Assembly: GCA_964016885.1 (NCBI GenBank)
Contig: OZ024755.1
Coordinates: forward strand, 22,196,001 to 22,260,000
Direction: 5' to 3'
From: Eledone cirrhosa
Lineage: Eukaryota
DNA: 64,000 bases
The translations under genes were made by a program, and so were the position numbers. Under the pieces are notes generated by a model that saw only the letters and a program-made list of their open reading frames with translations, was not told where the DNA came from and did not search any database. Every line of letters begins with the position of its first letter. The stretch's first letter is position 1. Positions 4,536 through 57,020 of this stretch are shown piece by piece.

Positions 4536-6467
4536 TGCAAAATGGAGATCTCTCATCATACAATAATGCTCTATGGGGAGAAAAAGGAACTAAACAAGAA
4601 GATTCAAGTATTTATTCATATGTACGATTTGAGAGAGGTTCTAGAGTCACTCACCTTGATAGAAATGATAGCCAAACCCTTCTCACATTGGTATCTTATA
4701 TTAAATAGACTATCAGAAAGTTCTAATCTCTTCTACATCAATATACATAAGATCTGCCATCTTGAGGATGTCTTTGTCTACTTTCTTTCTTCAAATGGTA
4801 AATGTAGTTCCCAACAAAGACACCAGATGAATAAAAGACACCAGATGAGGTCTTATAAAGAAGCAACAGATATGTTGCCACTAGAATGTCACATGCCATA
4901 AACCACACCCCAAAGTAAAATATGGAATTGTTTAAATAATCCTAAAAATATCAGAATAAATAAGAATGTTGATAGTTTTAAATGAAGTAATTAAAGGAAA
5001 TTGTATTAGAAAAATAAACAGTAAAGTTGATGCAGTGTCATAATGAATGTAGTAAGTCAAGAGGTTTTAATTATTATTACACACACTGTAGGGATGAGAA
5101 AACATTATCATTGTAGATCACAGCCTGCGAGCTTGTAAAAAATGAACTGTTGATGAAGGACCTTTACTAGAGACTTATTGAGGTGGGTAAAAAGACATGA
5201 ATTTTAAGGGTAGATTGCTCCTTCTTACTCATTTTAAATGTTTGCCATGCAAATCACTGTTTGTTGTTATTCTGTGTAAACATATGTTTAGCACTATAAG
5301 GTCTCTAATAATTCCACCTTGATTACATATTCATCTGTGAAATATGTATCTAGTATATACACAATATACTGTGTTTTCTCTATGATATATGATTCTTTCT
5401 CTCTCTATATATATATATATCTATTTCATTTGACTTATTATGGCTCTGGATGTCTATTGAGCTTGCTTATTGAGAAACACAAAATTCTAACATATTTTAT
5501 ATGTTTTGATTCACTACATTTGTGTATATTTATATATAGGAGAGTGTTAAAGTTTGGTCGAAGCATTGTGGAATTTTAAAAATAGTCATTTTGGAACGTT
5601 GAGGCTTCCAAAATGTCCATTTATATATATATATAACAAAGAAGGTGTAGTAAGATACCAGGTGGACAATAACGCACCAGAGTACTCGATACTTAGGGTA
5701 GTAGAGTGGGTTGAGCTCCGGTCATTTCGACAGCTAGATCCAGACTGTCAGGATCTAGCTCTCGAAATGGCTGGAGCTCAGCTATCGGGGTCCTGACTCT
5801 TTTCCTATATATATATATATATATATATATATACCTTTTACTGTCATTTCTATAATACGAAGAGGGTGTTTGACTCAAACACGCTCCAGTATTCTAATCC
5901 TTATATATATATATATATATTGATCGACTTTCGTCAAATCGGACCGAGGAAACAATGTTTCCGTTGGTCTTTCCAGTTGCTAGTACTATCTATTGGACGC
6001 AACTCCAGGTAGAAGGAGCAACGTAAAATAAAGTGTCTTGCTCAAAGACATAACATGTCGCCTGGTCCGGGAATCGAACTTACAACCTCAAGATTGTGAA
6101 TCCAATTCTCTAACCACTCAGCCACACGCCTTCACAATATATATGTATATATATATATATATATATGTGTGTATAATATAATTGTTTCTACTTTTGGTAC
6201 AAGGTCAGGAATTATCCCAGTGTATTACTGGTACTTTATTTCATCGACCCCCGTAAGGATGAAAGGCAAAGTTAACCTCGGCAGGATTTAAACTCAGACC
6301 ATAAAAGGCCGTAACTCTTTGCTGCAAAGCAAGGCGTCCGACTCTCTACCGATTCTGCCAATCCACCAGCCATGTGTGTATAATATAATATAAAAATTTA
6401 CATTTAAAAAAACAACCCATCCTTGTGAACAGTGTGAATTAAAGTGACGTTTAAACCTTGACAGCAA

Positions 6468-7146
6468 TATAATTGTTTCTACTTTAGGCACAAGGCCAGC
6501 AATTACCCAGTGCATTACTGGTACTTTATTTTATCGACCCCGTAAGGATGAAAGGCAAAGTCAACCTCGGCGGGATTTGAACTCAGATCGTAAAGGGACG
6601 TAACTATGCTGGAAAGCATGACGTCCAACCCTCTACCGATACTGCCAATCCACCATGCGATATGATGTAACATAATATATTAATATACAGCTAAACTAAA
6701 TACTATAGATGTTTATAAAGTAGGATGTGACTTCAGAAATTTAATTGCTATTTCTAGCTGACCAAGTGACCATGTACATCCTCTAATAGATAATTGTTTC
6801 TACTTTAGGCACAAGGCCAGCAATTACCCAGTGCATTACTGGTACTTTATTTTATCGACCCCGTAAGGATGAAAGGCAAAGTTAACCTAGGCGGGATTTG
6901 AACTCAGACCGTAAAGGGACGTAACTATGCTGCCAATCCACCACCCATCCTCTAATAGATAATTGTTTCTACTTTAGGCACAAGGCCAGCAATTACCCAG
7001 TGCATTACTGGTACTTTATTTTATCGACCTCGTAAGGGTGAAAGGCTAAGTCAACCTCGGCGGGATTTGAACTCAGATCGTAAAGGGACGTAACTATGCT
7101 AGAAAGCATGGCGTCCGACTCTCTACCGATACTGCCAATCTACCGC
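6468..7146 (-). mobile_element. Cluster of three family A SINEs (6468-6654, 6790-6945, 6959-7146)
   Basis: Near-identical copies; the last two are tandem and bounded by repeated CTCTAATAGATAAT. Confidence 0.88.
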
Positions 7147-8210
7147 CTCTAATAGATAATGTAGTTCTAAATAGTCCACCACCCCAAACGACATGATGGT
7201 CATGTTTGGAATGCCTTTGCTCATAGGTCTGTTCAATCAAGGTTGACCTAGGGCCAAACAGTAACAAAAAAACATGAACTACTACAAACTTTCACCAGCA
7301 AACAGGGGGTTTCTACATGGTTGTTTGACTTGCTAGAAATAGCAACTGAAGCTCTGTAAAATTACTCCCTACAATCTTAAAAAAGGAACACATCAAATAA
7401 TGTAATCCTGGACACACCTTAAAATACATGGTTATCAGCTCAGGAATAATGTTTAACCATTAAAAAAACAACATCCATCTTGTATGGCTGCATGCTGATC
7501 TGGCGCTATAGCAACAAAGGTGGTCATTCTGGTGACACTACAAAAAACACCCAGTCCATCCTGTAAGGTGGTCATGCTGATGACATGACAAAAAGCACCC
7601 AGTCCATCCTGTAAGGTAGTCATGCTGGTGACATGACAAAAAGCACCTAGTCCACTGTATATTGTGGTTGTGCTGGTGACACGACAAAAAAAAACACCCA
7701 GTCACCCAGTTAGATGATCGTTTTGTACCCAGTCCACACTGTTATGTGCTTAGCATTTTGAAGGGCATCCAGCCATAGAAACCAAACCAAAATACAGATC
7801 CCCATGAGCAAGACGTGGTCACCTGACCTGAATTGTCTCATAACATGACAACCCAGCTAACCCAAGCAAGGGTGGAAAAATGGACGTTAAATGATAATGG
7901 AGATAAGTCTGCTTGACCATAACTAAACTAGGGCTCAACAATAACTAGAAAACATTTTGAAAATATGCATCACAATGAAACCCCCATCGAAACAAAAGTG
8001 TCATTATTGTGCATGCAGAACCAGTCTCACAAACATTTTATCATCTCCCACCCCCAATACATCTACAACCAGATGTCTTGTAATAAAACACCAAAAATGG
8101 GAAAGGGTGTCATGAAAGTGTGGCAGAGAGCAATAGAAAGTTTCACCCGACCCTGCCAGATACAGATTTTATTGGGGGAATAATATATATACATATTAGA
8201 CAGAGTCAGG

Positions 8211-8298
8211 GCGTGATGGCTGAGCTCTTGCCGTTTCAACAGTTATATCCAGACTGTTAAGAAACAGACTTACAGTACACTAGCCATTTCATCAGGGG
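8211..8298 (-). ncRNA. Type I hammerhead motif with long stem-II insertion (partly decayed)
   Basis: Minus strand CCC-CTGATGA-AATGGCTA...TAACTGTT-GAAA-CGGCAAGAGCTCAGCCA-TC. Homologous 3' halves at 5751-5792 and 29453-29487 (TAGCCGTC-GAAA-CGGCT-TGAGCTC-AGCCG-TC-GGGG). Confidence 0.6.
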
Positions 8299-9126
8299 CA
8301 TGGCTTAGGTGATTAACATGTCGATAAAATAATAGGTTGTCCATATAAGGATATAAGCTGTCCATGTAAGGGTAAAGGTTCTTTATAGGATGTTAGAAAA
8401 AAGAAGTTTTAGAATGAATTGATTCTACTTTATATATATATATATTTATTTATATATATGTTGTGGAACCAACCAACCAACCAGAAATTTATAAGTTTGT
8501 AGATTTGTAAATTTATAAATTTATAAATATATAATAAATTGAAGTGAAAGCAACTGGTGCGTGTGTTTCTTATTGGCAACATGACCCACCCAAAGTATAA
8601 CAATATATATATATATATATATATATATACAAATATAATTTCATCGAGATCGTATTTCGGCGGGGGCCAAAACCAAAACAAAACACAATCCTCGAGATAT
8701 GCAGCAAGCGTTCAATGGACTAAAAGAAGACGAGAGCAATTAACATTCATTATAAAGGCCAGATAAAATGAAAACAGTGGTCGTGAAGCCATCAGTCACC
8801 AGAGCCAAAAAAACGAAGCAAGATATATATATATATATATATAAATATATATTTATTTATATATGTATATTTATTTATATATGTATATTTTCTTTGAATG
8901 GTTGTGTGTGTGGGTGTGTTGGTACGTTTCATTACTTGTGTGAGGATGGGTAAGAAAAACCGGTGCTGTAACAGTGCAGGAAGAATTAGGCCAAGTTGAA
9001 GAATTGTCAAATATATATATATATATATATATATATATATGTAGGAGGTGAGTTTTATTGTAGTACAATAAAGCAATGCAGATATCGGATAAGAAGCACT
9101 CTACAATTTGTAGGACTGGAGTATAC

Positions 9127-9391
9127 ATAATATATAAGATCAAAGGTTGGTTAAAAGAGTGCCATGTATTTTATTATGCACATTTCAAAAACAAAATATC
9201 ATCATGCAATAACATTTGTGTTTTCATCAGATAAAATAGGAAGACATGATATGTTTTTTAACCTTCATATCATGTCTTCCTATTTTATCTGATGAAAACA
9301 CAAATGTTATTGCATGATGATATTTGTTTTTGAAATGTGCATAATAAAATACATGGAACTCTTTTAACCATCTTTTGATCTTATATATTAT
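9127..9391. repeat. Inverted repeat, ~126-bp arms, 12-nt loop
   Basis: Arms flank loop 9254-9265, with about 3 mismatches and 1 indel; the right arm abuts (TA)n. Confidence 0.92.
9281..9351 (+). ncRNA. Type I hammerhead ribozyme motif (mirror copy on minus strand at 9167-9238)
   Basis: Stem I TATTTTAT/ATAAAATA; CTGATGA 9289-9295; ~16-bp stem II; GAAA 9332-9335; near-palindromic TGTGCA; AUA cleavage triplet. Confidence 0.75.
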
Positions 9392-56043: not shown

Positions 56044-56289
56044 ATCTTCTATACACAATCATACACACCCGTGTATATTTATTTATATATCTATATATCT
56101 ATATATATATATATATATATATATAATCATCATCATCACCGTTTTACGTCCATTCTTCCACACTAGCATGGGTTAATATGTATACAGGGCGACCGGCTGA
56201 GGTTGAAGGAACAGAATAGCGGTCGCCCTCGGGTCCTCGATTTTCAGCCCCATGGATTTTATCTATTACATTCACGTATTATATTTCGA

Positions 56290-56347
56290 ATACCTGATGA
56301 TATCACCGGATTCATACGGAACCCGGTCATTGAAATGATCATAGTAT
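56290..56347 (+). ncRNA. Minimal type I hammerhead ribozyme motif (Penelope-like pLTR type)
   Basis: ATAC-CTGATGA-(ATCACCGG...CCGGTCAT stem II)-GAAA-TGATCA (palindrome)-TA-GTAT, followed by AATAAA. Confidence 0.72.
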
Positions 56348-56669
56348 AATAAACCTTTCAAGGATTTACACAAATCCAGCCTCCTGTCATTTCATTATAA
56401 TATTTAACTCCGTAATAGCACCACCAACTACAAAAACAAAGACGGTTGAACTGCTTTACATTGAGTACTCTCTATATTATTGCATTACGATTGACCATAC
56501 GGAATAGACCAGCTCTATACAGTGGTGAACCTCAAACCTGAATATATATACAATATGTATATATATATATGCACCTCTTTGTTCGCCATCTCCAATCTCC
56601 CTACCTTTATTCTGATTGTTCGTGTGACTAGGTTTTTGTGGAGCTTATACTCAACACTGTACTTATTAG

Positions 56670-56714
56670 GCTCTGAGGATTCCTGCCAAAAGGCGAGGAT
56701 GAAACATTGTAAGT
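56670..56714 (+). ncRNA. Minimal type I hammerhead ribozyme motif
   Basis: GCT-CTGAGGA-TTCCTGCC-AAAA-GGCGAGGAT-GAAA-CATTG-TA-AGT, then AATAAA; distal pairing TACTCAA/TTGAGTA. Confidence 0.62.
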
Positions 56715-57020
56715 AAATAAAGACTGTTTGAGTATGTAAGCGTTCTTTGGTTGCTTTTGCATATAACGGCTCTGTTCTTGTACATTGAGCTAACACAATA
56801 CTGCCATAATACAGTACGGTGCGTGTGTGTTTATGCACATATGCTCCGTGCTATACGTAAATAAATATGTATGTATATATGCATTTATGAATGCAATACA
56901 ACTTAGTAAAACAGAAAAAAAATGTGATATAGTGATGTAATATTTACCAAACATTAAGTCACTACCAAAACTTTCTTCAAGATTCAATTTACTACACATG
57001 GATTCTATCCAAAGCACTTA

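Follow-up and report, generated by a model that had tools for sequence, protein, structure and literature searches.

The 64,000-nucleotide (nt) stretch of the Eledone cirrhosa genome analyzed here (assembly GCA_964016885.1, contig OZ024755.1, forward-strand positions 22,196,001 to 22,260,000; referred to below as the window and numbered from its first letter) has a guanine-plus-cytosine content of 34% and is rich in microsatellites and repeat fragments. The look of its short interspersed nuclear elements and the similarity of one insert family to Octopus Naiad ends both point to an octopus host. At or between its (TA)n tracts lie short inserts, together about 5.5% of the window, that carry hammerhead ribozyme motifs or are folded back into palindromes. 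These inserts are very probably short, dispersed 3′-end stumps of Penelope-like elements (PLEs). We consider it likely, with somewhat less confidence, that the PLEs in question belong to the (TA)n-targeting Hydra and Naiad clades and that each palindrome is the product of two reverse transcription events.

Families of short inserts at (TA)n tracts

The inserts were grouped by comparison within the window, among the matches listed. A first-pass annotation, made from the sequence alone, had described them as mutually dissimilar, which proved wrong only in part: three of them form a single family (F1), and F2 (9041-9389) is related to F3 (18095-18600; 61% alignment, E 2.8e-6). The members of F1 are 5636-5805 (F1a), 29406-29592 (F1b), and 8195-8431 (F1c); they have a short end common to all three and a long end common to two. 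F1a and F1b are head-to-head palindromes with (TA)n on both sides and a hammerhead 3′ half whose stem III is capped by a palindrome. In F1a (arms 5712-5741 and 5751-5780) stem III has eight pairs, the left arm carries a tail, and the right arm stops at the short site. In F1b the arms are identical over 43 base pairs (bp), stem III has six pairs with a GAGCTC loop, and the tail, of about 90 nt with a hairpin at 29522, is on the right arm. F1c, on the minus strand, is a single 5′-truncated end flanked by TA on both sides, with the same short end and a decayed complete hammerhead (core position C3 at 8295, GAAA at 8237-8234) in which stem I is unformed.

F2 is a head-to-head palindrome, both arms of which contain a full type I hammerhead (9167-9238, minus strand; 9281-9351, plus strand) with a stem II that is 12 bp long. 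Its tail of about 80 nt (9041-9121) is confined to the left arm, and its loop (9254-9265) is continuous with the tail-less arm. F3 has 193-bp arms with a single mismatch, a weak hammerhead in each (C3 at 18475, plus, and 18301, minus), and a left arm that carries a tail with a hairpin (18191, minus). Close by, between TA-rich tracts, is a tail-only stub (18605-18664, minus). F4 has three copies: a spaced half-core of the Naiad type, GAAA-N5-RTGAT-N13-CTGATGA-N-GGA, which is an incomplete hammerhead (10866-10903, plus); a second match to this motif (13983-14020, plus); and a palindrome (31097-31219) with identical 34-bp arms, a left-arm tail of about 43 nt, and a loop continuous with the tail-less right arm. 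F5 is represented by a short-end copy (8460-8603, plus), in which no hammerhead was found, and by a related long-end copy (55487-55685) that runs about 57 nt past the end of the first and whose inverted left arm is interrupted by a satellite.

Of the remaining inserts, two are head-to-head pairs with TA on both sides in which no hammerhead was found, 31728-31845, with a 34-nt extension on one arm, and 55806-56075, of 112 bp with a right-arm extension. A third head-to-head pair (50192-50480) has a hammerhead 3′ half in each arm, with a four-pair palindromic stem III and a GUU triplet; its left arm ends in TA, its right arm continues, and its far end is uncertain. A decayed minimal hammerhead with a broken core (49959-50144, plus) enters a TA tract at its 3′ end, and its last 37 nt are mirrored tail-to-tail across that tract (50057-50144). 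Two plus-strand hammerheads complete the set. That at 56290-56347 is of type I; its stem II has a U.U at the base and shows two departures, and its stem III, of four pairs, is palindromic. The insert at 56670-56792 contains a hammerhead (56670-56714) that, compared by eye, is of Hydra style, with a U.U at the base of stem II, a 1-nt loop III, and a GUA triplet, followed on its 3′ side by a variant of the tail hairpin (about 56769-56792).

Fold-backs are far in excess of chance. We found 11 that are not microsatellites against 0.03 expected from 30 shuffles of the window, and in six of the 11 an arm ends within 15 nt of (TA)4 or longer, against 0.69 expected from 2,000 random placements. These counts bear out the first-pass observation of inverted duplications whose arms abut (TA)n. 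One of the six has its TA tract at the center, and the fold-back at 48234-48293 is distant from TA. In gapped alignments of ten pairs, one arm halts in TA and its partner continues in eight; the other two are satellite-interrupted or overly degenerate. A hammerhead or half-core fixes the orientation of six pairs as head-to-head. Tails in the window's palindromes measure 34-100 nt, and the arms of young copies are identical or nearly so (zero to two mismatches).

Other TA-associated sequences are recorded here for completeness. At 35500-35781 the end of a short interspersed nuclear element (SINE) is duplicated in inverted orientation around (TA)62, with 97% complementarity; this is probably a fold-back at a microsatellite, unlike the PLE pairs. 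Two further inserts (8632-8823 and 5834-5901, the latter a short imperfect palindrome) have (TA)n on both sides, and neither a hammerhead nor a relative in the window was found for them. A small TA-flanked repeat occurs at 31880-31960 and 55715-55790 (98% identity over 54 bp), each copy next to other stumps, and stumps cluster at common TA tracts.

F2 could be followed in public sequencing reads. F2 words were present in 14 of the 20 runs listed, from nine studies, with a share above 0.2 in only six, and eight runs with small shares were left out of the evidence; none of the F2-bearing runs is on record as RNA, and these data have no bearing on expression. We compared four runs (X1, X18, X4, and X15) with positions 9041-9262 at 85% likeness and obtained 1,842 contigs from X1, 4,590 reads from X18, and 25 contigs from X4. 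The median of the summed depth in X1 was 7.9×10^5, and the copy-specific junction had a depth of 14. The ratio between them, about 5×10^4, is not a copy number, and we therefore read it only as showing that F2 is a very high-copy family. Among the best 17 of 107 rows, loose (TA)n ends were found just before 9122, the short end of the right arm in the window, in ten contigs of X1, 251 reads of X18, and one contig of X4. Beyond 9253 other copies continue with the window's loop in reverse complement (40 contigs in X1, 545 reads in X18, and four contigs in X4). The long end, at 9041, is known from the window copy alone. No match to the F2 pattern was obtained in the metagenome, viral, and prokaryote collections.

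Could the palindromes simply be unrelated repeats reshaped by errors of assembly or by fold-back repair after breakage of fragile (TA)n tracts? Two inverted duplications are centered on TA (50057-50144, and 35500-35781 around its (TA)62), and every short end coincides with at least three TA-like letters of the element, as such repair would have it. Against this, TA lies at the outer ends rather than the center in eight of the ten aligned pairs, the end points are family-specific, and the F2 short end recurs in three public runs. Moreover, the arms differ by substitutions, and a contig of X1, which may be the assembly's own sample, spans the F2 arm-loop junction at a depth of 14. We regard breakage as a very improbable source overall, and for F1 to F4 it is already largely refuted.

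Hammerheads, tail hairpins, and a probable link to Penelope-like elements

We scanned the window for hammerheads with three descriptors: strict type I, relaxed type I, and one with features of the Hydra clade. The strict descriptor matched only 9281-9351 (plus) and its mirror, 9167-9238 (minus). With the relaxed descriptor, 200 local block-wise dinucleotide shuffles yielded 0.01 matches on average and the window five, at three loci (C3 at 9289/9230, 18475/18301, and 56294), a contrast that is optimistic because the thresholds were picked with the candidates already known. The third descriptor gave three matches (9289, 9230, and, newly gained, 56673), against 0.003 in 300 shuffles. Thus, four loci with a type I hammerhead near the 3′ end pass a descriptor. 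The bare core CTGANGA, in contrast, was not enriched in the window (24 observed versus 23.4 shuffled).

The state of individual motifs varies. The core together with all three helices is complete at 9289/9230 and 56673, mismatched at 56294 and 18475 (stem III is weak in 18472-18530), and absent as a full set at 8295 and 49962. Thus, of the five full hammerheads that the first-pass annotation had named, four pass at least one descriptor; the fifth, 8211-8298 (minus), retains its core and lacks stem I, with a mismatch in stem III. Among the halves it had named, those at 5764 (eight stem III pairs) and 29461 (six pairs, the motif being present in both arms at 29461/29445) stand, and that at 49962-49985 does not, its core being broken by GG in place of CU. 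A further 3′ half with a good stem III is at 50327/50237. In stem III, one pair is U-A in one of the copies F1a and F1b and C-G in the other, a compensated difference. The F1 hammerhead, with its long stem III, is predicted from its pairing to cut as a monomer.

Variation in F2 reads spares the ribozyme core. Among the best 40 of 42 rows, 16 positions of the F2 hammerhead were variable and none of the 12 core nucleotides was hit (p = 0.036). Read against the fold, pairing is disrupted by a single rare change only, and at 9180 the majority letter makes the stem III palindrome perfect.

No hammerhead family of Rfam appeared among the best 150 of 348 matches in the window or in two local scans; Rfam gave only sub-threshold matches of microRNA and small nucleolar RNA type, and the stem lengths of the window's hammerheads are atypical. 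Nine candidates were folded by minimum free energy (MFE), and none of their z-scores (−1.42 to +0.11) was significant. Neither the cleavage site nor the stretch 8-12 nt upstream of the core showed a pile-up of 5′ ends, although copies cut at the cleavage site are hard to recognize. The turns of the palindromes fall within stem II or else lie upstream of C3 by 23-136 nt, and the arms of the hammerhead-bearing families all run beyond the cleavage site.

A second shared feature is a tail hairpin of the form CTC-stem-GAG-TGCT. It occurs five times in the window, against a mean of 0.36 in 300 shuffles (maximum, four), and all five stand at the start of a tail: in F1a, F1b, F2 (9098-9121, minus, beginning at the first tail base; its MFE fold forms the inner stem only), F3, and the tail-only stub (at 18660, where the hairpin is the MFE fold, z −2.45). 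The tight pattern was refined once its matches were known, and only this form separates from shuffles; a looser pattern was weak (eight matches, two of them overlapping; the shuffles averaged 1.93 and reached eight).

The architecture of the inserts is that of endonuclease-bearing PLEs as described in the literature. An inverted, 5′-truncated copy with a one-sided tail is a known PLE layout (PMC8557442, PMC3846280), and pairs of hammerheads on opposite strands 100-700 bp apart have been ascribed to truncated PLEs (PMC4209133). The minimal PLE hammerheads of Cervera and de la Peña (2014, PMC4209133) show the same scattered single motifs, opposite-strand pairs, and palindromic stem III as our inserts, and the inverted pseudo-long terminal repeats (pLTRs) with tails of Arkhipova et al. 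(2013, PMC3846280) share the head-to-head arrangement of inverted repeats and the one-sided tail. What differs from both descriptions is that the insertions here consist only of two ends of 30-200 nt. Both the Hydra and the Naiad clades target (TA)n, and the target-site duplication is hidden within the tract (PMC8557442). The PLE class, its hammerheads, its (TA)n preference, and its inverted-plus-tail layout are already published, and the families of the window are further members; they may already be in Repbase or in the Zenodo library for Octopus vulgaris.

By eye, four families likely belong with Hydra-clade PLEs, which include Hydra-1_Obim of Octopus bimaculoides (Craig et al. 2021, PMC8557442, Files S1, S2, and S7) and share the inserts' (TA)n preference. 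Hammerhead style and tail hairpin make the connection. The type I hammerhead of Hydra-clade elements lies close to the 3′ end; the base of its stem II holds a U.U or an additional nucleotide (PMC8557442), its stem III has 3-4 bp and a 0- to 2-nt loop, and its triplet is GUA or GUU (PMC8557442 File S2). Hammerheads of this style are present in the window at 56673, 56294, and 50327. Penelope-13_HM has a 5′-truncated inverted copy, and, again by eye, four of six Hydra-clade consensus sequences have a CTC-stem-GAG-YACT hairpin at the start of the tail or the 5′ end, slightly varied in Hydra-1_Crog (PMC8557442). On the other side, no window insert resembles the sequence of Hydra-1_Obim by eye, and the 12-bp stem II of F2, the palindrome-capped stem III of six to eight pairs in F1, and the lack of an attached open reading frame here set our inserts apart from the clade.

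F4 likely belongs with the Naiad PLEs of Octopus. By eye, its half-core has the same place near the 3′ end and identical spacing in Naiad_Obim and Naiad_Ovul, the latter being annotated "HHR_half_core," and these elements share the (TA)n target, the inverted copy, and the tail (PMC8557442). Sequence flanking the motif differs, so F4 is a separate family. Cephalopod Naiads are termed long inactive in PMC8557442, yet the arms of 31097-31219 are identical over 34 bp. The F4 motif matched three times in the window and not at all in 100 shuffles; 70 metagenome loci also matched, which we take as chance background because none has a TA tract and nearly all lie within long reading frames. F4 was also considered as a type II or a non-circularly permuted hammerhead (PMC10085705), a reading that we rejected because the stem II and stem III pairing was not found by eye or by folding. 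As a separate observation, the Naiad consensus printed before Naiad_Hpol in the supplement of PMC8557442 ends, by eye, in a complete hammerhead with the cleavage strand in loop II, an arrangement that PMC10085705 describes as the non-circular type CSG. Judged from sequence, permuted hammerheads may be among the Naiad "half-cores."

No PLE reverse transcriptase (RT) or GIY-YIG reading frame was found among 361 low-complexity-filtered frames of at least 45 amino acids searched against Pfam, nor by a motif scan of the window, which alone covered the shorter and low-complexity frames. The lone GIY-YIG match (60879-61148, E 0.048) resembles, by eye, the C-terminus of a long interspersed nuclear element (LINE). 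The absence of such a frame, already apparent at first pass, makes the link from the inserts to PLEs indirect, although truncated ends would be expected to lack it. Nor does the window contain a partial tandem of the form pLTR, reading frame, pLTR. Even so, the first-pass proposal of truncated, TA-targeting PLE derivatives from several families is borne out by the by-eye ties of their ends to Hydra- and Naiad-clade consensus sequences, and its observation as a whole is partly confirmed.

Part of that proposal was a retrozyme-like system, in which the inserts would be non-autonomous mini-elements, PLE parasites transcribed and mobilized as such. Non-LTR (non-long-terminal-repeat) retrozymes are likewise non-coding, high-copy, PLE-related, and equipped with type I hammerheads, and they have been proposed to derive from PLE end repeats (bioRxiv 10.64898/2026.07.22.740005). 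The very high copy suggested by the F2 depth ratio (again, not a copy number), the sparing of the F2 core by variation, and the absence of attached coding sequence would all suit such parasites. Yet retrozymes form head-to-tail arrays of 150- to 450-bp units that yield circular RNAs (PMC7229834; bioRxiv 10.64898/2026.07.22.740005), whereas the stumps of the window are dispersed, head-to-head, and variably truncated. We found no tandem same-strand hammerhead units, and no tandem array in the window contains a hammerhead, from which we conclude that the inserts are not retrozymes. The two same-strand neighbors less than 1 kb apart differ in sequence (the units at 56294 and 56673 share a 9-nt match only), 5′ ends vary among copies, and other F2 copies extend upstream of 9253, as the 545 reads and 40 contigs show. 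Mini-elements mobilized in their own right are accordingly an improbable account of the inserts, though a non-autonomous master may lie elsewhere in the genome.

How the inverted ends may have formed

PLE stumps, then, are the preferred identity of the inserts, and the question is how a stump acquires a mirror arm. The formation of inverted PLE ends and tails is called open in PMC8557442. The purified PLE protein of the anole provides a biochemical precedent: on AT-rich DNA it nicks each strand and extends it, beginning synthesis at two internal RNA sites between which the tail lies, and it works on uncleaved RNA, hammerhead cleavage being dispensable (PMC11167929). By analogy, a PLE protein with RT and GIY-YIG domains, encoded elsewhere, would nick both strands of a (TA)n tract, and each nicked 3′ end would pair over a few bases with a UA-rich site on the uncleaved element RNA, one site lying directly before the tail hairpin and the other 35-100 nt further on. 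Each nicked strand would prime its own short cDNA; both cDNAs would stop after 30-200 nt, and a head-to-head join, either blunt or at 1-2 nt of microhomology, would unite them. The hammerheads would be passengers of the element's end repeat, and most copies in the window would be decayed and dead on arrival. That the arms extend beyond the cleavage site is consistent with an uncleaved template.

The principal alternative accepts a PLE origin and derives the mirror arm from self-priming fold-back of one cDNA or antisense template, an endonuclease later trimming one end at the short site. Self-priming was proposed earlier for PLEs (PMC3846280) and was favored by the first-pass annotation. It accommodates the near identity of the arms of young copies (zero to two mismatches) and the presence of the rare 9180 variant in both arms of F2. 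The arm to which the loop belongs is the more telling feature. The loop is on the tail-bearing arm in F1a and F1b, as self-priming would have it, and F1a has a 2-nt microhomology at its turn. In F2 and F4 the loop is on the tail-less arm, and since a tail-less arm cannot template a tail, simple fold-back fails for these two. Loop orientation thus contradicts pure self-priming of the kind described in PMC3846280 in two of four cases, and an extra step is required; a free palindromic intermediate that could be cut at one end or the other, for example, would also fit the F2 and F4 loops. In addition, at one joint in X18, from 9071 to 9253 and seen as a single read start, one arm consists of tail alone and has no overlap with the other. 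Because the F2 and F4 loops belong to the tail-less arm, priming at two ends fits better, and, given a PLE origin, we lean modestly toward it; self-priming fold-back, doubtful as an account of F2 and F4, we think rather unlikely.

Several points weigh against our explanation as a whole. Only four palindromes are informative with respect to the loop, and they are evenly split. The rare 9180 letter (about 1.4% of X1 depth) is present in both F2 arms, as would be the case if one had been copied from its partner or the two had later undergone conversion. The window offers no PLE reading frame, the clade links are by-eye motif matches, and four TA-flanked palindromes or inserts have neither a hammerhead nor a clade marker. 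The tails, at 34-100 nt, exceed the published 30-40 nt. As to the hairpin, its pattern was abstracted from the window and the supplement of PMC8557442 together, the full hairpin is the MFE fold in only three of the five copies tested, and Hydra-1_Obim and Hydra-1_Amil have no strict hairpin in their consensus sequences (PMC8557442). Finally, one of the four runs, X15, gave no reads on 9041-9262 and was counted as no test. A tentative idea, which we hold at a little under even chances, is that a Hydra-clade tail hairpin (CTC-stem-bulge-GAG-YACT/TGCT) conserved from coral and sea cucumber to this genome positions reverse transcription and that inverted ends stem from two-ended priming. We found neither the tail hairpin nor two-ended priming as the origin of inverted PLE ends described in the full-text literature searched, which lacks most subscription papers.

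Neighboring repeats and the meaning of the stumps

The stumps share the window with repeats of other kinds. A Tc1/mariner element (32914-34370), flanked by TA, has about 30 bp of inverted sequence at its ends and a broken minus-strand DDE transposase (Pfam DDE_3, E 1.3e-6); a SINE has inserted close to one of the ends. At 16500-17835, inverted termini about 260 bp long enclose a 63-bp tandem array together with a SINE, an arrangement resembling that of a fold-back DNA transposon. A plus-strand frame at 14480-14780, which has no Pfam match, resembles the C-terminal restriction-like endonuclease of CRE-type LINEs, and we take the broken LINE fragments at 32296-32810, 58400-59560, and 60780-61240 to be RTE-like from their appearance. 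Minisatellites occupy 53510-55487 (68 bp; this one interrupts the left arm of the palindrome at 55487), 15820-16440 (42 bp), 24656-25306 (34/68 bp), and 57021-57333 (20 bp).

That stumps cover about 5.5% of the window is nothing unusual in a genome of this kind, PLEs making up 6.83% of that of O. vulgaris, in 190 families of which 31 were recently active (PMC13282606). Annotators should expect the stumps to be mislabeled as miniature inverted-repeat transposable elements (MITEs) or microRNA hairpins. We rejected a MITE identity for the inserts of the window: their ends are asymmetric, with a tail on one side, and their centers differ within F1, so the symmetric and fixed terminal inverted repeats of a MITE are lacking. 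As to the RNA signal recognized by the PLE protein, the tail hairpin is a concrete candidate. Short and numerous as they are, the stumps offer a cheap genome-wide test between self-priming and two-ended priming. If the reading favored here is true, tens of thousands of mini-palindromes would record, through the arm that holds the loop, the mechanism by which they were made.

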